DNA of 64,000 nucleotides from Candidatus Parcubacteria bacterium (GTDB lineage Bacteria > Patescibacteriota > Minisyncoccia > Phycocordibacterales > Zambryskibacteraceae), in NCBI GenBank assembly GCA_019661785.1, contig JAIFWP010000003.1, forward strand, positions 31,009 to 95,008, read 5' to 3'. The translations under genes were made by a program, and so were the position numbers. Below, piece after piece: positions 4,695 to 64,000 of the stretch (position 1 is its first letter; every line of letters begins with the position of its first letter). The notes under the pieces were generated by a model. It had not been told where the DNA came from. It was given only the letters and a program-made list of their open reading frames with translations, and made no database searches.

Positions 4695-4723
4695 TTGACA
4701 AATGGCTATATTTATGATAGTAT
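4695..4723 (+). promoter_or_regulatory. Sigma70-type promoter: TTGACA, 17 nt spacer, extended -10 TGA-TAGTAT. Member of a repeated promoter family.
   Basis: Sequence is cTTGACAaatggctatatttaTGATAGTATataagaag. The stretch TATGATAGTATATAAGAAG is identical to the promoter at 52271. Confidence 0.55.
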
Positions 4724-4784
4724 ATAAGAAGATGTACGGTTCGGGGATTTCCCCCGGAACGGAACTCCTGTACTGGAGCTTACA

Positions 4785-5240
4785 ATGCCGAGCAACGAGA
4801 TTAACCTGAGCAGCTCAGTCCTCACTTCCTTCGAGGTTGTGCGCAAGGCGCTGGAGATTCGCTACGGAGCTCAAATCAGCTTCGTAGGTTCGATGAAAAT
4901 CACGCCCGACGATCCGGACAGAACGCCCGGCTCGAAACGCCAGGTCGTTCTACAGACCAAGTTCGACACGATGAAGGGGACCCTTCGTATCATGGTCGAA
5001 CTGGGACTCAGCGCAATCGTGTTCCTCGAGTATATCGACTGCGCATGGCGCTTCGATTACGCCGAGGTGCGGGTGCAGAATCCGAACGACCAATCGGCAC
5101 GCACCGACGGGAGCTACCGGTACACTGTTTGCTATGCGAAGGAGCGCCAGTATGACACCCATCTGTTTGTCGGAGACCCGCTAGACAACATCAGCTATCG
5201 CGGCCATGATATGAGCGATAGGGTCGAAGTGAAGTGGTGA
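4785..5240 (+). CDS. Hypothetical protein (151 aa)
   Basis: ORF with GGAG 6 nt upstream of the ATG. A strong promoter lies upstream and an intrinsic terminator downstream. No recognisable domain. Confidence 0.55.
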   Translation: MPSNEINLSSSVLTSFEVVRKALEIRYGAQISFVGSMKITPDDPDRTPGSKRQVVLQTKFDTMKGTLRIMVELGLSAIVFLEYIDCAWRFDYAEVRVQNPNDQSARTDGSYRYTVCYAKERQYDTHLFVGDPLDNISYRGHDMSDRVEVKW

Positions 5241-5249
5241 GTGGCTCAC

Positions 5250-5298
5250 GCCGCCCGAGAGTTAGAGTCGCCCGACTCAACTCGGGCGGCTTTCTTTT
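5250..5298 (+). terminator. Rho-independent terminator
   Basis: 10 bp GC stem gccgcccgag/ctcgggcggc with a nested inner hairpin, followed by TTTCTTTT. Confidence 0.55.
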
Positions 5299-39096: not shown

Positions 39097-39585
39097 ATGG
39101 TAGAGAAACAATACTCATGCGTTATCTCATATCTGCCGCTAGAGAACGAGCCCGACTATACGCACACGGCTTTCCCGCTATCCATTGGTCCAAACTACTT
39201 GGAACTCTCTAGCGACAAAGGGAGCGACCCTTATGCATGGGCGGAAAAGTGCGTATCCACTTTTAGCAAAGACGTGCCTTGCGTGCTTGTGCCTGGTACC
39301 CGCTTCGACATGAGTGGCACTCGACACGGCAAAGGCGGTGGCTGGTATGACCGCTTCCTATCTAAAATACCTTCTCATTGGACTCGCATAGGCATCGCTC
39401 ATAAGCGTCAGCTCTCAGACCAGAAACTCCTAAGACAAGCATGGGACCAACCCGTAGACTTGTTAGCTATATATGATGGTTCATACTGGAGCTTGATCGA
39501 AACGCACGCACGCACGGATGTGCGAGATGCGAGAATCGAACTCGCGCCCGATGCTTGGGAAGCACCAGTTCTACCACTAAACTAA
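39097..39585 (+). CDS. 5-formyltetrahydrofolate cyclo-ligase family protein
   Basis: Signature GKGGGWYDR. The stop overlaps the 5' end of tRNA-Gly on the opposite strand by 9 nt. Confidence 0.65.
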
Positions 39586-39591
39586 TCTCGC
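39521..39591 (-). tRNA. tRNA-Gly (anticodon CCC)
   Basis: Acceptor GCGAGAT/ATCTCGC, anticodon loop UUCCCAA, T-loop TTCGATT. Confidence 0.8.
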
Positions 39592-39593
39592 AG

Positions 39594-39676
39594 TGCCCGG
39601 GGTGAGACTCGAACTCACAAGGCCTTGCGGCCAAAGGATTTTAAGTCCTTCGTGTATACCATTCCACCACCCGGGC
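39594..39676 (-). tRNA. tRNA-Leu (anticodon UAA), long variable arm
   Basis: Acceptor GCCCGGG/CCCGGGC, anticodon loop CUUAAAA, T-loop TTCGAGT. Confidence 0.8.
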
Positions 39677-39678
39677 AG

Positions 39679-39750
39679 AGGCCTAGGGCGGAATCGCACC
39701 GCCGTATAACTCTTTTGCAGAGAGTTGCCTTACTACTTGGCGACTAGGCC
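39679..39750 (-). tRNA. tRNA-Cys (anticodon GCA)
   Basis: Acceptor GGCCTAG/CTAGGCC, discriminator U, anticodon loop CUGCAAA. Confidence 0.75.
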
Positions 39751-40342: not shown

Positions 40343-40415
40343 GCACCCTTAGCTCAGCTGGTAGAGCAGATCCCTCTTAAGGATAAGGTCGTTGGTTCGA
40401 TCCCAACAGGGTGCA
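40343..40415 (+). tRNA. tRNA-Lys (anticodon CUU)
   Basis: Acceptor GCACCCT/AGGGTGC, anticodon loop CUCUUAA, T-loop TTCGATC. Confidence 0.8.
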
Positions 40416-40503
40416 CAAGTGCGGGGCACTTGTGCAAGCCGGAGGCCGACGGGCCGAGGCGGGGTCGCACAAATCCCGAGCACGGGATTATGTGTGACCA
40501 CAT
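40416..40503 (+). repeat. Third copy of the tRNA-associated conserved element, here filling the tRNA-Lys to tRNA-Leu spacer
   Basis: AAGCCGGAG-GCCGACGGGCC-GAGGCGGGGUCGCA-caaAUCCCGagcaCGGGAUua-UGUGUGACC. The core is conserved and both hairpins are maintained by compensatory changes relative to the other two copies. Confidence 0.55.
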
Positions 40504-40587
40504 GGGCGGGTGGTGAAATGGTAGACACGCCAGTTTTAGGAACTGGTTCCGCAAGGAGTGGAGGTTCAAGTCCTCTCCCGCCCACCA
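40504..40587 (+). tRNA. tRNA-Leu (anticodon UAG), CCA encoded
   Basis: Acceptor GGGCGGG/CCCGCCC-A-CCA, anticodon loop UUUAGGA, long variable arm. Confidence 0.85.
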
Positions 40588-42025: not shown

Positions 42026-42053
42026 TTGACAATACATTTTATAATGATATAAT
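42026..42053 (+). promoter_or_regulatory. Sigma70 promoter TTGACA-N16-TGa-TATAAT
   Basis: cTTGACAatacattttataaTGATATAATccc. Confidence 0.55.
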
Positions 42054-42100
42054 CCCAAAAGACTTTCAACCAACCGTTCATCTCATCTGTGGAGGTTCCT

Positions 42101-43063
42101 ATGTGGTTCAGAAAAAAGGATGCGGGGCCCAAAAGGCTCATGCCGAGGGGGCCCAAAGCCAAAAAGCCGAAAAGCCGCTTTAGGCTCTGGATGTCCGACC
42201 TTCCCTCGCGTGCAAGCACGAGGCTCGGGAAGAGCGCTGCATCGGCGAAGATCTTCTTCGCCGCTCGGTGGGCAAAGCTCGTGCCTTGGCTCAAGAGCAA
42301 GGCTCGCGTGCCAGACACAGGCCTGCCTGTCGGGATTATCGTGCAAGGCGTAGTAGCCATTGTAGTCGTCGCTATCCTGTGCTGGAAGGCGAGCGCGGCA
42401 ACCACGCACACGTGGGATAGCCTCAAGGCAATTCGCTGGCCCGTTCTGTCCCTGGCTTGGATTAGCGGAGTCGCCGTCGTACTCATGGCCTTGCTACTTA
42501 TCACTCTTGTCGTCATGAGACGCCGAGAGGCTAAGACAGCCCCAGCGCCGGAAGGACGTCCGTCTGCATCTACGTCAGGAACTCCCCCGCCGAAAAAGAA
42601 GAACGCGGGCAACGCACTCATTAACTTGGCGTTCAGCCTCGCAATCGTGGCGGCGCTCGTCTTCTTCGGTGTCCGCTTCTGGCAGATTTATCCAGAAGAG
42701 AAGCAGAAGGACAGGGAGTCGAAGGAGCGAATCGCCATTGCAGAGAGAGACCGAGTGGTCGGCTGCAAGACGAACGCCTGGGTAGACGGCTGCTCTACCC
42801 GTCCGAGGAAGTTCACCCGCATGATTTATGCGAGCGAACCGACCGAGGTCATCATGAATCCGGGTGACAAGCTCGTGTGGGTGGTCGACATCGGCCGCTG
42901 CAATGACTTGCTGACCTCGGCGCGCATGGAGGGCGAGTACAAGATCAGATCTTTCCGTACCAGACCGGGTGTCGACTCGCTGCAGGTGACCTTCCTCCTG
43001 CAGAAGACCGATGAACCTGAGAACCGCAAATGCGGCAAAACACCTACGACAGACATGTCGTAG
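42101..43063 (+). CDS. Hypothetical membrane protein (3 TM), Lys/Arg-rich N-terminus
   Basis: Start at MWFRKK with GGAGG upstream. No known domain. Confidence 0.45.
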   Translation: MWFRKKDAGPKRLMPRGPKAKKPKSRFRLWMSDLPSRASTRLGKSAASAKIFFAARWAKLVPWLKSKARVPDTGLPVGIIVQGVVAIVVVAILCWKASAATTHTWDSLKAIRWPVLSLAWISGVAVVLMALLLITLVVMRRREAKTAPAPEGRPSASTSGTPPPKKKNAGNALINLAFSLAIVAALVFFGVRFWQIYPEEKQKDRESKERIAIAERDRVVGCKTNAWVDGCSTRPRKFTRMIYASEPTEVIMNPGDKLVWVVDIGRCNDLLTSARMEGEYKIRSFRTRPGVDSLQVTFLLQKTDEPENRKCGKTPTTDMS

Positions 43064-50290: not shown

Positions 50291-50549
50291 TGGTGAGTAT
50301 CTTGGTTAAGGAGAGCCAGCTAGACTCAATGCCGTGGAAGATGTTCTGGAAAGGAGTGACGCCTGAAGTTGGCACTGCGGCGAGATTCACTGCAGTGTCG
50401 GCGCTCTCTACAACCTTCGAAGGAGCAGCAAACATGATAGCCGACCAGAAAGCGAAGATAACCAAGGTCGTGCTACCTGCTGTGAGCAGAGCAAAGCGCT
50501 TCTTGTGGTGAAGGGGCTTCTTGTGCAACTCCATTATATATTTCTTCAT
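50277..50549 (-). CDS. Small membrane protein (90 aa)
   Basis: Single TM ORF overlapping the gyrA start by 14 nt. Confidence 0.35.
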
Positions 50550-51100
50550 TCCTCTTTTAGCACTACTATATCACCCTCCTTGCCCTCAAGATCCTTCTTC
50601 TTCACTACGAGTTTGTCGAGATGCTCGCCGTCCTCGCCAGCTTCCTTCAAGAACTTCTTTAGGCTCTCGGGCGAGTAGCTTATAGGTATGATGAGCGACG
50701 GCTCAAGAGAGACAGCGAGCTTGTATGCAGGAGCCGCCTCTAGCGTATCGACTGGCACGAAGAGGATATCGATGTCCTCTAAATTTTCTATTGTCTCTGC
50801 ATTTAAAGCAGGATTTGAGAGCGAACCAAGAAAACACAAATTCAATCCTTCAAAATTTATAAGATAGACAGTATTTATCTTCCCATCCTTGCCCTCAGAG
50901 AGAAAACCTTTAACCGAGATGTCCTTAACCTCGTACTCGCCAGGACCCGAAATGACGAAGCCCTTGCCCTCGACTGCAGAACCCCCAGTGCTCATGAGAG
51001 TGAGGTCGGCGTTGCCTCGGTTCGAGGTAGGGTTCACCGCAAGAGACAGGTCTCCTTGGGAAATCTTCACAGATTCCCCGCCCTGATAGCTGATTATCAT
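50546..51100 (-). CDS. MBL-fold metallo-hydrolase-like protein (degenerate)
   Basis: Beta-lactamase-fold-like pattern of short beta strands with Asp/His positions. Weak call. Confidence 0.4.
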   Translation of the reverse strand: MIISYQGGESVKISQGDLSLAVNPTSNRGNADLTLMSTGGSAVEGKGFVISGPGEYEVKDISVKGFLSEGKDGKINTVYLINFEGLNLCFLGSLSNPALNAETIENLEDIDILFVPVDTLEAAPAYKLAVSLEPSLIIPISYSPESLKKFLKEAGEDGEHLDKLVVKKKDLEGKEGDIVVLKEE

Positions 51101-51171
51101 GGCCCTATTTTAGCATATTTCCCGAGTTTCCGCCACCACAAATAACCTTATTCTTAGGCTTGATTTAATCC

Positions 51172-51200
51172 TTGACAAATAGGCTTAATTATGATAGTAT
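51172..51200 (+). promoter_or_regulatory. Sigma70 promoter of the TTGACA-N17-TGATAGTAT family
   Basis: cTTGACAaataggcttaattaTGATAGTATagaaggag. Confidence 0.55.
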
Positions 51201-51257
51201 AGAAGGAGAATCGGAGATGTGCGCAGTTCCCCACAACCAAGCTACAAGGAGGACGGG

Positions 51258-51692
51258 ATGCCCGCAAACAACAAAGGTTGGGCCCAGGCGATTGGCTACC
51301 TCATCGCCTTTGTGATGATGATGATCGGAGCTGGAGCCCTAGGCAGATACATGCATGGCCGCGAACGCGACCAGGCAGAGCGGGACAGCGCGCGAAAGTC
51401 CGCTGCCACCGACTCAGTCGTCGGTATCCGCGTCATCTGCGGGAAAGTGAAGAGCTTCGAGCGCATCACCTCCCACGAGTTCCCTGTCGTGCACATTATG
51501 ATGGAGAACGGCGATACGTACCGCCTCCTCGGCGATGTCGGGACGAACATGCCTCCCGTGCTCAGCCCGAGCGTCATCAGGTACATGGTGCCTGAGTGGG
51601 TGGAGGAGCATTCCTTACTGCACGCAGGCACCGGCGGGGTAATCCTCACCATGATGCCAGTTCGGAACTGCGACCAGCACAAAAAGAAGTAG
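51258..51692 (+). CDS. Hypothetical small membrane protein (144 aa, one TM)
   Basis: Start at MPANNKGW with AAGGAGGA 5 nt upstream. The track's GTG start at 51219 is an over-extension. Confidence 0.5.
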   Translation: MPANNKGWAQAIGYLIAFVMMMIGAGALGRYMHGRERDQAERDSARKSAATDSVVGIRVICGKVKSFERITSHEFPVVHIMMENGDTYRLLGDVGTNMPPVLSPSVIRYMVPEWVEEHSLLHAGTGGVILTMMPVRNCDQHKKK

Positions 51693-51706
51693 ACACGCAG
51701 CTTTAC

Positions 51707-51736
51707 GCCCCACTCTCACCGGTGGGGCTGCTTTTT
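51707..51736 (+). terminator. Intrinsic terminator
   Basis: GCCCCACtctcaccGGTGGGGCtgctttttt. Confidence 0.7.
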
Positions 51737-51752
51737 TATAACTTTTATCTCT

Positions 51753-51781
51753 ATTGACAATAGATAGATACTATGATAATC
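51753..51781 (+). promoter_or_regulatory. Sigma70 promoter (same family; -10 is TGATAAT)
   Basis: aTTGACAatagatagatactaTGATAATct. Confidence 0.5.
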
Positions 51782-51840
51782 TGGTCCCAGAACCAATGTA
51801 GTCCTAGTCTCACGCAGTCCCCCATCCGCACGGAGGATTC

Positions 51841-52165
51841 AATGATTCGCAAGTTCGCCACATCGATCGCACTCGCAGTTCTCTTTCTCGTCGCCGGCCT
51901 GTCTTATTTGAAGGCGCAGGGCGTCGAGCCGGAACCCTGCCTGAAGGCCATCAAGGTCTCAGAACTCCAGAAGAATGGCAAGCGCACGATCACCATGGCT
52001 TGGCCATCCGATACGACGAAGACCAGAACAATCGAGCGCAAGAATCGCCGCCCGACCATCGTCGTCGGCAAGTTCTACTGGCTGACCTACGACGGCGACC
52101 GTATCCAGGATATCTACCAGGGCAAGGGCTGTCCGGCGACGAAGTCTGGCAGCGTGAAGAAGTAG
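51841..52165 (+). CDS. Hypothetical small secreted protein (108 aa)
   Basis: Start at MIRKFATSIALAVLFLVAGLSYLKA with GGAGG upstream and a signal peptide. Confidence 0.55.
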
Positions 52166-52229
52166 CTTGCGGTTCCCCCACCGCGTGAACCCCTGATCCC
52201 GACATGAATCGTCGTCGGGACGGGGCATA

Positions 52230-52255
52230 AACCCAGGAAACTCCTGTGGTTTTTT
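52230..52255 (+). terminator. Intrinsic terminator
   Basis: CCAGGAaactCCTGTGGttttttt. Confidence 0.55.
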
Positions 52256-52270
52256 TCATCTTTAAAATCC

Positions 52271-52299
52271 TTGACAAAAAATATATAGTATGATAGTAT
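52271..52299 (+). promoter_or_regulatory. Sigma70 promoter (family member; 19 nt identical to the 4695 copy)
   Basis: cTTGACAaaaaatatatagtaTGATAGTATataagaag. Confidence 0.6.
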
Positions 52300-52305
52300 A
52301 TAAGA

Positions 52306-52839
52306 AGGTTGATAAATCACTTGGCAAAGCCTTGCGGCTGAGCTAGTGTAGTCATAGGCAAGATGTACCCTGAATTTGTCCCCTCTCGTACGATCGGAGG
52401 AGCTCTAGGGGCCGTGATTGTGCCGACGTAAGGGTCCTCGCACGAGGAACCAAGCAAGGCGCTAATGGCTTACTTATAGCTCAAGTTCGATACAGAGCGG
52501 ACCGTTCGTCCCTGCTTTGCTCGATGTGCAAGGCAGCGCCTTCGTTCACCCCCACTGCGAGGCCTCACGGCAACATGCAGACAAGACGATGGTGAAGCAT
52601 CGATAGGTTAAGGGCAATACCTTAAGCCCCAGCGCATGAGTGGTGAGACAGAGGGATTAAAACCCCTGCCGCGTAACCACACCCTGAGCTGAAGGCCGTC
52701 GGATCGCTAAAAACGCCGGCCACCGATTGAGAAGACGAATAGTCAGTAGCACGGGTCTGTCCCGCGGCCGCCATCCTCATGGTGGACGGCCGCGGGACAG
52801 AACCCCAGCAGTTACGCATGTTGCGTAGCTGTTTTTTTT
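52306..52839 (+). ncRNA. Candidate structured non-coding RNA, about 535 nt, family unassigned
   Basis: A consensus promoter lies 7 nt upstream. No plus-strand ORF longer than 35 codons in any frame. Multiple GC-rich hairpins, including a perfect 14 bp stem CUGUCCCGCGGCCG/CGGCCGCGGGACAG. It ends in an intrinsic terminator GUUACGCAugUUGCGUAGC followed by U8. Confidence 0.55.
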
Positions 52840-52944
52840 ATGTTAATTTACGCAGGTTCCTTACTAGAACCCGCTCTCCGATATCCCCTCTCGCCTAGGC
52901 AAACACTCTGAGGCTCGAGGACCGGAAGCGGCTTTAAACTCAAA

Positions 52945-54120
52945 ATGGCATTATTCGGCAGGAAAAAGGCTCCCGTCGCAGAGGCGTCGGACGAGCAGGT
53001 AGAGGTTAAGCAAGCAGTCAAAGAGAAGGTAAAGAAAGAGATCGCGGCGCCTGAGGCAGACAACTCCCTCATGGGCTCGCTTGTGGCCAAGTCTCCTAAT
53101 CCTCCCAAGGTGGACGATGTGGTCGAGGGTCCAGTGCTCTCTATAGACAAGGGTGCTCTATACATTGACCTTCCTCCCTTCGGCACAGGTATCATCTACG
53201 GACGCGAGTTCATGAACGCGCGCGACATTGTGAAGCGCGTCAATGTGGGCGACACCGTCGCGGGCAAGGTGGTCGGCATGGGCGGCAAGGATGGATACAT
53301 AGAGATATCTCTCAAGGAAGCTCGCCAGGCTCTCATCTGGAGCGAGGCTGAAGAGGCTATCCGCGACAAGCGCATATACGAGCTTGCTATCACCGACGCC
53401 AACAAGGGCGGACTCATACTTAACTGGCAAGGCATACCTGGCTTCCTCCCCGCTTCTCAACTCAAGCCAGAGCACTATCCTCGCGTTTCTGACGGCGACA
53501 AGGACAAGATACTCGACGAGTTGCGCAAGCTCGTAGGAGAGAAGCTGTCCGTCACTATCATCGGTGCTACTCCTAAGGAGGGCAAGCTCATCTTCAGCGA
53601 GAAGAGCCCAGAGTCGAAGAATAAGGAGAACATCATCGCCAAGTACTCTCTCGGCGACGAGCTCACTGGCGAGGTCACTGGACTCGTAGACTTCGGAGTC
53701 TTCGTTAAACTCGAAGAGGGACTCGAAGGCCTCGTGCACATCTCGGAAATTGACTGGGGCCTTGTAGAGAACCCTAAGGCCATGTTCAAAATCGGCGAGA
53801 AGGTGAAGGTCAAGATTATCGAGATTAAGGACGACAAGATATCTCTCTCCATCAAGGCCTTGAAGGAGAACCCATGGAAGGAGGCTTCGGAGAAGTATCA
53901 CAAGGACGAGGTAGTGGACGGCGTCATCATCAAGTACAACAAGCATGGAGCTCTCGCCTCACTCGAGGAGGGCGTCGCGGGTCTCGTGCACGTCTCTGAG
54001 TTCGGCTCTGAGGATAAACTAAGGGAGAAGCTAGAGATGGGCAAGACCTACAGCTTCAAGATAACCCTCTTCGACCCTAAGGAGCAGAAGATGGCACTCT
54101 CGTTCGTAGATAAAAAGTAA
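52945..54120 (+). CDS. rpsA: 30S ribosomal protein S1 (four S1 domains)
   Basis: Repeated S1 OB-fold motifs (G.V.G.V..G.FV). Confidence 0.88.
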   Translation: MALFGRKKAPVAEASDEQVEVKQAVKEKVKKEIAAPEADNSLMGSLVAKSPNPPKVDDVVEGPVLSIDKGALYIDLPPFGTGIIYGREFMNARDIVKRVNVGDTVAGKVVGMGGKDGYIEISLKEARQALIWSEAEEAIRDKRIYELAITDANKGGLILNWQGIPGFLPASQLKPEHYPRVSDGDKDKILDELRKLVGEKLSVTIIGATPKEGKLIFSEKSPESKNKENIIAKYSLGDELTGEVTGLVDFGVFVKLEEGLEGLVHISEIDWGLVENPKAMFKIGEKVKVKIIEIKDDKISLSIKALKENPWKEASEKYHKDEVVDGVIIKYNKHGALASLEEGVAGLVHVSEFGSEDKLREKLEMGKTYSFKITLFDPKEQKMALSFVDKK

Positions 54121-62898: not shown

Positions 62899-63014
62899 AT
62901 TGGCGGAAGAGGTGAGATTTGGTCACAGGTCTCGGCTTGCTAGCCAAGCCTGCGACCCCGCCTCGCGCCGCCGCGCTCCGGCTTTCAAATCGTCCTCGCA
63001 AACGGGTTTTGCTG
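62899..63014 (-). repeat. tRNA-Ser-associated element: conserved core plus hairpin plus ACCUGUGACC plus a duplicated tRNA-Ser 3' end including CCA
   Basis: 62901-62923 = CAAATCTCACCTCTTCCGCCA repeats the last 18 nt of tRNA-Ser. The core GAAAGCCGGAGCGCGGCGGCGCGAGGCGGGGTCGCAGG is about 95% identical to the copy at 30205-30351. Confidence 0.6.
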
Positions 63015-63101
63015 CGGAAGAGGTGAGATTTGAACTCACGGTAAGGTTGCCCCTACGCTGGTTTTCGAAACCAGTGCCTTAAACCACTCAGCCACTCTTC
63101 C
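63015..63101 (-). tRNA. tRNA-Ser (anticodon CGA), long variable arm
   Basis: Acceptor GGAAGAG/CTCTTCC, anticodon loop UUCGAAA, T-loop TTCAAAT, discriminator G. Confidence 0.85.
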
Positions 63102-63155
63102 AAGGCCATAACTCTAGCATTTTCGGCGAAAAATGTTAATATTTGCCCTGCTTAA

Positions 63156-63227
63156 GGCCCTATCGTCTATCGGTTAGGACACGAGCTTTTCAAGCTTGGA
63201 AGCCGGGTTCGACTCCCGGTAGGGTCA
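63156..63227 (+). tRNA. tRNA-Glu (anticodon UUC)
   Basis: Acceptor GGCCCTA/TAGGGTC, anticodon loop UUUUCAA, T-loop TTCGACT. Confidence 0.8.
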
Positions 63228-63236
63228 TCGCAACAT

Positions 63237-63848
63237 ATGAAGAAGCTTACGATTGCAGTTGATATTGATGATGTCATTGCGGCAAGTGCGCCGGCCTTTA
63301 TTGCATATAGTAATGAGAAATTTGGTACGCATTTAACGGTTGATGATTATCACGAACGATGGGGTGATGTTTGGAAAGTTGAACAGGAAGAACTCATTAA
63401 GCGGGCACACGAATATCATGAATCTGGAGACCATGCGAAATACGGAGTCATAGATGGAGCCAAAGATTCTCTTAAAGAACTCAGGAGGAATTTTAGACTA
63501 ATAGTATTGACTACTAGGCGCAATTCTATCAATCAATTGACAAGGGATTGGATAAATAAATTTTATCCAGATATTTTTGACGACTTTGTCTTTACTGGAT
63601 TTTATGATGACCCAACCGTTGGCGGCGCGCACATGACTAAGGCCGAATTGGCCCGAGGAGTAGGCGCACAGTACTTAATTGATGACCAGCTCAAGCACAT
63701 TTTAGCTTCTGCTGAGATTGGCATAAAAGGGTTGCTGTTTGGAGATTATTTTTGGAATAAAGCTGACCATCTTCCGACTAATGTGGAAAGAGTGAGAAAT
63801 TGGACCGAGGTTCTTGAGTATTTTGGAAGAGAAATTAACCCACTTTAA
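63237..63848 (+). CDS. HAD-superfamily 5'(3')-deoxyribonucleotidase-like protein
   Basis: Motif I DIDDV at the N-terminus and a NT5C-like fold. The ORF is noticeably AT-richer than the rest of the window. Confidence 0.65.
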   Translation: MKKLTIAVDIDDVIAASAPAFIAYSNEKFGTHLTVDDYHERWGDVWKVEQEELIKRAHEYHESGDHAKYGVIDGAKDSLKELRRNFRLIVLTTRRNSINQLTRDWINKFYPDIFDDFVFTGFYDDPTVGGAHMTKAELARGVGAQYLIDDQLKHILASAEIGIKGLLFGDYFWNKADHLPTNVERVRNWTEVLEYFGREINPL

Positions 63849-63880
63849 TCTCGGTCAATTTTGTTGTAAAGTAGTCAAAC

Positions 63881-63953
63881 GCGCGGTTAGCTCAGTTGGT
63901 AGAGCATCCCCTTGACGTGGGGAGGGTCAGAGGTTCGAATCCTCTATCGCGCA
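63881..63953 (+). tRNA. tRNA-Val (anticodon GAC)
   Basis: Acceptor GCGCGGT/ATCGCGC, anticodon loop UUGACGU, T-loop TTCGAAT. Confidence 0.85.
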
Positions 63954-64000
63954 CAGATGAGACATGTTCTAGCAAGATGGGAATGGTTTCTAGTATTAAT

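Follow-up and report, generated by a model that had tools for sequence, protein, structure and literature searches.

A candidate lineage-specific non-coding RNA gene in a hypervariable island upstream of rpsA in a Parcubacteria genome

Several families of large bacterial non-coding RNA (ncRNA), including OLE, GOLLD, ROOL, HEARO and raiA, are marked by extensive covariation and a wide distribution, while the small RNAs of Firmicutes that carry C-rich motifs (the RsaE/RoxS and RNAIII type) contain a C-rich block that could pair with G-rich ribosome-binding sites. Bacteria of the candidate phyla radiation have tiny genomes, and few regulatory RNAs have been described from them. Here we describe a unit of ∼535 nucleotides (nt) without an open reading frame (ORF), located immediately upstream of rpsA in a 64,000-nt stretch of DNA from Candidatus Parcubacteria bacterium; this entire 64-kb stretch is referred to as the window, and its coordinates are used throughout. 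Judged from its sequence, the unit is tentatively read as an independent, strongly transcribed, lineage-restricted and fast-evolving orphan ncRNA gene of an accessory island, an interpretation that we hold at slightly less than an even call. The unit has a predicted promoter and terminator of its own, lacks an ORF and has orthologues in which elements are conserved, and in these respects it appears to fit the generic kind of stand-alone ncRNA gene.

The window was compared with the 4227 families of Rfam 15 using cmscan, and at the gathering threshold the only matches were 12 transfer RNAs (tRNAs); the same threshold applied to 11 related loci gave no match to the unit. Permissive searches of positions 52150-52950 returned nothing but chance matches of microRNA models to a long stem, and the permissive Rfam scans included one sub-threshold match to NsiR1, on a terminator; no family matched the region at any threshold. 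OLE, GOLLD, ROOL, HEARO, raiA and the other large ncRNAs of Rfam were rejected, having no covariance-model match in the window or in the homologues described below. The unit resembles these families in its size (several hundred nt), in being intergenic, ORF-free and hairpin-rich, in ending at its own terminator, and in its location in accessory or variable parts of the genome; it differs in having a conserved core of just ∼110 nt, a body that turns over completely between close species, and four clear members among 172 loci. The likeness to the C-rich small RNAs of Firmicutes consists of a stand-alone unit with a strong promoter, an intrinsic terminator and a C-rich block (CCCUC). However, the unit is several times longer, has a single C-rich block and no sequence relationship to those RNAs, and its block is neither predicted to be especially accessible nor matched by enriched targets in the window. 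A literature search found nothing on such an RNA, or on a leader of the S1 gene, in Parcubacteria. An earlier annotation of the window (the original prediction) had proposed either a highly divergent housekeeping RNA or a lineage-specific large ncRNA; since homologues exist at the same locus, the second description is a fair one.

The near-perfect sigma-70 promoter that had been noted just upstream of the unit is present on the plus strand at 52271-52299 (TTGACA-17-(TG)nTAGTAT), with a scan score of 10/12 including the extended -10 TG. Its -35 hexamer TTGACA (52271-52276) is separated by a 17-nt spacer from the -10 hexamer TAGTAT (52294-52299), which is preceded by TG. Transcription is predicted to start at ∼52305, and the unit spans ∼535 nt to the end of the terminator at ∼52841. 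The rho-independent terminator was also found as described, on the plus strand at 52807-52841, with a 12-pair stem (52807-52833) followed by U8. The intervening sequence (52300-52806) is poor in ORFs, and positions 52278-52847 form the longest part of the window without any ORF of at least 90 amino acids. The statement that no plus-strand ORF exceeds 35 codons holds but for a trivial excess: the only plus-strand ORFs with a start codon encode 33 amino acids (52727-52828) and 39 amino acids (52779-52898), and the latter runs through the terminator.

The comparison set began with 160 related loci and reached a total of 172 rpsA loci (1.43 Mb), designated by L-numbers, with synteny tabulated for the first 80. 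Relatives of S1, the product of the downstream rpsA gene, all derived from metagenome-assembled genomes of Parcubacteria/Paceibacteria, many of them labelled Zambryskibacteria. Single-sequence searches with nhmmer and blastn against the 160 loci produced one weak match, to L001. Recognisable homologues at the same place, located through the DNA around the closest S1 proteins, were identified in three loci besides the window among the 172, namely L164 (375 nt), L290 (∼583 nt) and L291 (∼613 nt). Two shorter positional analogues, in L001 (∼264 nt) and L163 (∼232 nt), extend from promoter to terminator and lack the 5′ hairpin P1 discussed below. One more locus, P0012, has a 794-nt gap without called genes and is known by gap length alone. 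Gene callers placed no gene in the homologous units, and the ORFs that can be read in the units of L290 and L291 are rich in Arg, Pro and Ser and extend through the terminator. Further members were sought over the 172 Parcubacteria rpsA loci with nhmmer profiles, regular expressions and a covariance model of P1 (R3), and none was found; three pattern scans of viral contigs gave chance matches only.

All six units (window, L164, L290, L291, L001 and L163) have a near-consensus promoter with TTGACA or TTGACT as the -35 hexamer; in L164 it extends from ∼2495 (-35 TTGACA) to ∼2521 (-10 TAATAT), and in L290 and L291 it begins at ∼2251 and ∼2247, respectively. Terminators equivalent to that of the window occur in L001, L163, L164, L290 and L291, and in all six units the descending arm of this strong terminator overlaps the -35 hexamer of rpsA's own promoter. 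The elements common to the homologues are the promoter, P1 (45 nt), a stretch reading AYAGA..AGUUCC, a C-rich block with the consensus N4-GUCYCCUC, and a downstream motif with the consensus CAAnAG-n-GAC-N4. The promoter and P1 (the first 55 nt) are 79.6% identical between the window and L164 over 93 nt, compared with 78% for rpsA and 66% for the MBL-fold gene on the other side of the spacer.

The first of the conserved structures, P1, is a 5′ stem-loop of 13 pairs at 52310-52354 (plus strand) that was present in every fold of the transcript and consists of outer (UGAU/GUCA), middle (CUnGC/GCUAG) and apical (AGCC/GGCU) stems. In a hand-fitted alignment of the four long RNAs (A4), from which four single-nucleotide indels had been removed, 94% of the cells were paired and 3 of the 13 pairs showed compensatory double changes; 3 of 500 shuffles were as good, and controls in which the alignment was slid collapsed. 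The covariance model R3 scored 46-61 bits in the window, L164, L290 and L291, and had no other match in the 1.43 Mb of related loci.

The second structure, P2, is a proposed helix between the C-rich block and the downstream motif (N4-GUC with GAC-N4). The block, AUUUGUCCCCUC in the window (52374-52385, plus strand), would supply the 5′ strand and be followed by an unpaired CC(C); it was aligned in five RNAs (window, L164, L290, L291 and L001), with the GUC predicted to be paired and the central CC predicted to be unpaired in three of them. The proposed 3′ strand, UACAGAGCGGACCGUU (52491-52506, plus strand), was recognised in the same five RNAs from the helix lists of their folds. In L290, L164, L291 and L001, P2 forms 6-7 of its 7 pairs. 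An alignment assembled by hand from segments chosen out of minimum-free-energy folds (A6) had 88.6% of its cells paired and three covarying positions, with 8 of 500 shuffles as good, and the covariation of P2 is taken as suggestive only.

Beyond this core, the body of the RNA is shared in patches. The alignment with L290 contains the block GACGUAAGG, followed by a UCCUC..GAGGA hairpin and AACC (52425-52451, plus strand); the corresponding hairpin of L290 reads UCCUG..CAGGA, a C-G to G-C swap, and the nhmmer match of the body to L290 was marginal (E of 0.1-0.5). In pairwise alignment with L164, the blocks GACAAGACGAUGGUGAAGC (52580-52598), CCCCAGCGCAUGAGUGGUGAGACA (52627-52650) and CCUGAGCUGA (52683-52692) were common to both (52580-52692, plus strand), and it is through these few blocks that the body matched with an nhmmer E-value of 3e-5; hairpins occupy equivalent places in the two RNAs and their sequences are different. 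A UUAAGG/CCUUAA stem that had been reported within this part was found at 52608-52613/52620-52625. The minimum-free-energy fold places a long GC-rich hairpin of 23 pairs directly before the terminator (52753-52805, plus strand). Over 18 nt its arms (52753-52770/52787-52804) show 94% complementarity, and within them lies the perfect 14-bp stem of the original prediction (52757-52770/52787-52800). The sequence of this hairpin is unique within the window, and L290, L291 and L163 carry long GC-rich hairpins of unrelated sequence at the equivalent place.

A number of observations weigh against the reading as an RNA gene. The full transcript folded better than shuffles, with a z-score of -6.6 (-4.9 for the opposite strand), and most of this is due to the pair of perfect hairpins near the 3′ terminus; for the interior alone (52305-52750) the z-score was -2.05, with 1 of 100 shuffles as good. 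The GC-rich hairpins that had been taken as hallmarks of an abundant stable RNA are present, and their significance was overstated, the transcript without its two terminal hairpins folding just ∼2 standard deviations better than shuffles. RNAalifold found no conserved structure in the sequence alignment of the window with L164 (structure conservation index 0.2-0.3, z-score ∼0; 0.28 and ∼0 for 52580-52692), and no consensus structure emerged from 5′ ends aligned with MAFFT. The C-rich block was no more accessible than average in predictions, and sites complementary to it were not enriched at ribosome-binding sites across the whole window. P2 forms 4 of 7 pairs in the window itself, and P1 and P2 are supported by just 4-5 sequences in alignments that were hand-fitted or edited. 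The original prediction had named the homologous regions upstream of rpsA and their covariation as a check: homologues do exist at the locus, while the body has no conserved structure and covariation is confined to the hand-fitted P1 and P2.

The distribution and the rate of change of the unit count on the same side. In many close relatives, L161, L162, L165 and L081 among them, the MBL-fold gene directly adjoins rpsA, with no island and no RNA, and L081 lacks the RNA although its S1 is 92% identical to that of L290. L289 and L166 retain island genes without the RNA, the cassette adjacent to rpsA being a protein gene. Unit length spreads 2.6-fold (232-613 nt), most of the body can hardly be aligned, or not at all, and nothing is detectable between L290 and L291 beyond P1 and the core despite 95% identity of S1 and 83% identity of rpsA DNA.

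Selection appears to act on a small 5′ core, with the long body evolving almost freely. If the unit is an RNA gene, its functional part would be this core of P1 and P2. P1 may protect the 5′ end of the RNA, and P2 would display the C-rich CCCUC sequence as a bulge and close a variable domain. The extended 3′ body, with its long hairpin, would serve as a fast-evolving scaffold, and the terminator hairpin may guard the 3′ end as well as keep read-through away from the rpsA promoter. The most likely mode of action, although improbable when taken by itself, would be that of a riboregulator acting in trans or of a protein-binding RNA, with the C-rich core either pairing with G-rich (Shine-Dalgarno-like) sequences or attaching to a protein; such an RNA would serve the island rather than core housekeeping. 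It is also conceivable, but doubtful, that the units represent a new Parcubacteria family of large accessory ncRNAs, in which a conserved 5′ core (P1, P2 and the C-rich bulge) is joined to a hypervariable 3′ domain of 150-500 nt that diversifies in step with the neighboring orphan secreted proteins, for example in host interaction or phage resistance.

In so small a genome, a unit of ∼0.5 kb that has a strong promoter and no ORF is a noticeable share of the sequence and would, if the favoured reading is true, be among the first lineage-specific ncRNAs proposed for Parcubacteria. Its location among the orphan secreted proteins of a hypervariable island suggests a connection with host interaction or defence, two subjects that are poorly understood in these bacteria. 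The practical value of the unit is limited for now, as there are four clear members of a candidate RNA known from sequence alone.

The principal rival to an ncRNA gene, unlikely in our estimate but a serious contender, is that the unit is a relic cassette whose ORF has decayed while the promoter, the hairpin of the 5′ untranslated region (UTR) and the terminator survive, so that a transcript is made and has no function. The island is built of cassettes comprising promoter, 5′ UTR, small ORF and terminator, and the terminator would be needed in any case to insulate rpsA. Orphan protein genes are preceded by the same promoter type and a 5′ hairpin at two places in the window (4695 and 51172), and the rpsA-adjacent cassette of L289 and L166 is a protein gene that ends at a terminator of the same kind. 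A relic would also account for a body whose rate of change is close to that of unconstrained sequence and whose length differs 2.6-fold, for the weak interior fold, and for the loss of the unit in close relatives. Set against this, the ORF-less state is found in 4-6 species with heavily diverged synonymous sites and is hence either old or repeatedly reached, and no frame retains detectable protein similarity, whether between the homologues or with the island proteins. A decayed protein gene or pseudogene was rejected, as the homologues gave nothing significant when compared with one another by tblastx or searched by tblastn with the island proteins. Internal blocks of the body are conserved (the 3e-5 match to L164) and P2 may covary. 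Finally, decay would be the expected fate of a useless strong promoter directly before rpsA, but all six genomes keep it at consensus.

An ncRNA gene is likewise preferred to a long distal leader of rpsA, in which the terminator would attenuate transcription from the strong promoter, with regulated read-through contributing to rpsA expression; this we consider quite improbable. The unit does lie on the same strand as rpsA and immediately upstream of it, and the terminator's 5′ arm (GUUACGC, 52811-52817) has a perfect complement in a GCGUAAC sequence inside the unit (52670-52676), with an analogous 7-mer in L164 (GUUGCGG at ∼2697-2703 versus CCGCAAC at ∼2863-2869). These 7-mers occupy non-homologous positions in the window and L164, none was seen by eye in L290 or L291, and an antiterminator-like 7-mer is possibly a matter of chance (∼3% per RNA). 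Moreover, beyond the terminator rpsA is served by a promoter of its own and by a structured leader that is conserved in 40 of 86 loci, including loci without the RNA; the terminator is strong (12 pairs and U8), and a terminator of the same kind follows a protein gene in L289. Riboswitch models of Rfam had no match at E ≤10 in 52150-52950.

Marginally less probable still is a micro-protein, in which the conserved block would be read as GUC CCC UCN CGN (Val-Pro-Ser-Arg) with wobble-like variation. In the window, a 22-codon ORF starting with AUG (52362-52430) spans the block, ORFs of 20-31 codons with AUG or GUG starts cover it in the window, L291 and L164, and the codons in the five homologues follow the pattern UCU/UCG/UCA/UCG and CGU/CGA/AGA/CGG/CGG. 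Neither the start, nor a Shine-Dalgarno sequence, nor the length is conserved, however; the L290 frame contains UAG and UAA just upstream and has no start codon, the peptides are alike in four residues only, tblastx was negative, and the other 450 nt of the unit would be left unexplained.

The other proposal of the original prediction, a highly divergent housekeeping RNA (transfer-messenger RNA [tmRNA], RNase P RNA, signal recognition particle [SRP] RNA or 6S RNA), may be regarded as excluded for practical purposes, because the tmRNA-like and RNase P-like strings on which it drew are not conserved and the unit is absent from close relatives. Both strings exist in the window: the tmRNA-like GGGGCCGUGAUUGUGCCGACG begins at 52408 and the RNase P-like ACAGAACCC lies at 52796-52804. 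Neither is kept in L164, L290 or L291. The one 20-nt string with a likeness to the 5′ end of tmRNA, GGGGCCGUGAUU (from 52408), has given way to unrelated sequence in L290 and is deleted from L164, and ACAGAACCC is simply the descending arm of the long hairpin. The unit differs from tmRNA in lacking a tRNA-like domain, a T-arm and a tag frame, and ARAGORN, run on the window, reported 12 tRNAs, no tmRNA and no tag frame. No Rfam model of tmRNA, RNase P RNA (types A and B), SRP RNA or 6S RNA matched 52150-52950 at E ≤10, and permissive cmscan of four homologous loci found nothing at E ≤1 for the housekeeping families. The locus is empty in close relatives, homologue length ranges from 232 to 613 nt, and the body is unalignable at distances where housekeeping RNAs stay alignable. 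The analysis clears the region of the reading as a missing housekeeping RNA, and yields as a by-product a well-supported structured leader of rpsA that is outside Rfam.

Some other kinds of element were also considered and rejected. No second copy of the RNA was found within the 64-kb window, so a repeat, a miniature inverted-repeat transposable element or the template of a diversity-generating retroelement was set aside; such a template, a retron or a CRISPR-like RNA had no repeat in the window to accompany it, and the neighboring proteins had no significant match in Pfam or PADLOC. A defence or toxin-antitoxin context was dropped, as Pfam and PADLOC searches of the island proteins gave no significant match.

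In the relatives, the order of genes is conserved, with gyrA, a small ORF and the MBL-fold gene (all on the minus strand) followed by a spacer, rpsA and, further on, pth. The MBL-fold gene of the window (50546-51100, minus strand) forms the upstream border of this spacer, which ranges from ∼170 nt to 2.2 kb among relatives and measures 1845 nt here (51100-52945). The spacer of the window holds two orphan signal-peptide proteins, orfA (∼51219-51692) and orfB (51842-52165), in addition to the ORF-less unit. In other genomes of the set the island encodes small proteins of the secreted or membrane type, which bear only a faint relationship to one another and can barely be aligned between species. 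The island between the MBL-fold gene and rpsA is missing from some close relatives. The ORF-less unit is the last, rpsA-proximal cassette of a hypervariable accessory island in some Zambryskibacteria-like Parcubacteria.

Strong promoters are found elsewhere in the window. The type TTGACA-17-TGATAGTAT-ATAAGAAG also precedes the orphan ORF at 4785-5240 and orfA: TTGACA-17-TGATAGTAT occurs at 4695-5295 (followed by ATAAGAAG at 4695) and at 51172-51692, before the two orphan genes. The ORF at 4785-5240 has its own 5′ hairpin and terminator and is inserted between a frr-like gene and a gene on the opposite strand. Both orphan-gene units (4695-5295 and 51172-51692) have the appearance of self-contained expression cassettes. 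A perfect consensus promoter (TTGACA-16-TGnTATAAT) was seen at 42026-42105, right after a terminator, where it serves an ordinary protein gene with a GGAGG ribosome-binding site. Since consensus promoters are common in this genome (4695, 51172 and 42026), the promoter is not diagnostic of the RNA unit, and the original prediction overstated its weight.

The leader of rpsA is a neighbor of the RNA and not part of it. The promoter of rpsA itself, read from the window as TTGCGT-17-TAATTT (52822-52849, plus strand), overlaps the descending arm and U-tract of the terminator, and this nested arrangement recurs in L001, L164, L289 and L290; L006 has TTGATT-17-TATTGT at the same position. The -10 hexamer and the downstream leader align across 49 loci. 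The leader is a structured element of ∼105 nt (52841-52944, plus strand) that is also present in L001 (5901-6004), L006 (2412-2516) and 37 other loci. Its hairpin with the invariant loop GGCAAMCAC showed covariation at 7 of 8 pairs on an unfitted alignment, with none of 500 shuffles as good, and RNAalifold predicted an outer helix (CCGUUUYYG/CYGGAAACGG) that ends ∼12 nt before the start codon, with compensatory changes at 14 of 16 predicted pairs. The leader's covariance model (R2), in which the GGCAAMCAC hairpin is followed by the element CCGGAAACGG, had matches in 40 of 86 related loci, including those without the upstream RNA. The leader had no match in Rfam and was not among the published r-leader candidates that were checked. 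It is a candidate autoregulatory leader of S1, and as a structured motif it is better supported than the upstream RNA.

The RNA and the leader share their strand and neighborhood, a UCCCCUC-type block is found in both, and UCCCCUCUCG is common to them in the window; they differ in that the RNA ends at the terminator, ahead of the rpsA promoter. Derivation of the RNA as a paralogue of the leader, suggested by the common AGUUCC, UCCCCUC and GGCAA strings, was rejected: with filters off, R2 matched no RNA body and identified only the true leaders in the window, L164, L290, L291, L001 and L163. An nhmmer profile of the leader likewise had no match in the RNA bodies, and Smith-Waterman alignments of RNA and leader did not rise above shuffles in five of the six genomes, the exception being a 10-mer in the window.

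The leader of rpsA can accommodate insertions. That of L291 contains an extra 38-nt hairpin (2915-2952) near its 5′ end, upstream of the UUAUUAG element, and those of L010, L018, L023 and L034 have an insertion of ∼30 nt inside the covarying hairpin. The 64-kb window has 12 tRNA genes, with clusters at 39520-39750, 40343-40587 and 63014-63954, among them three tandem tRNAs on the minus strand at 39520-39750.

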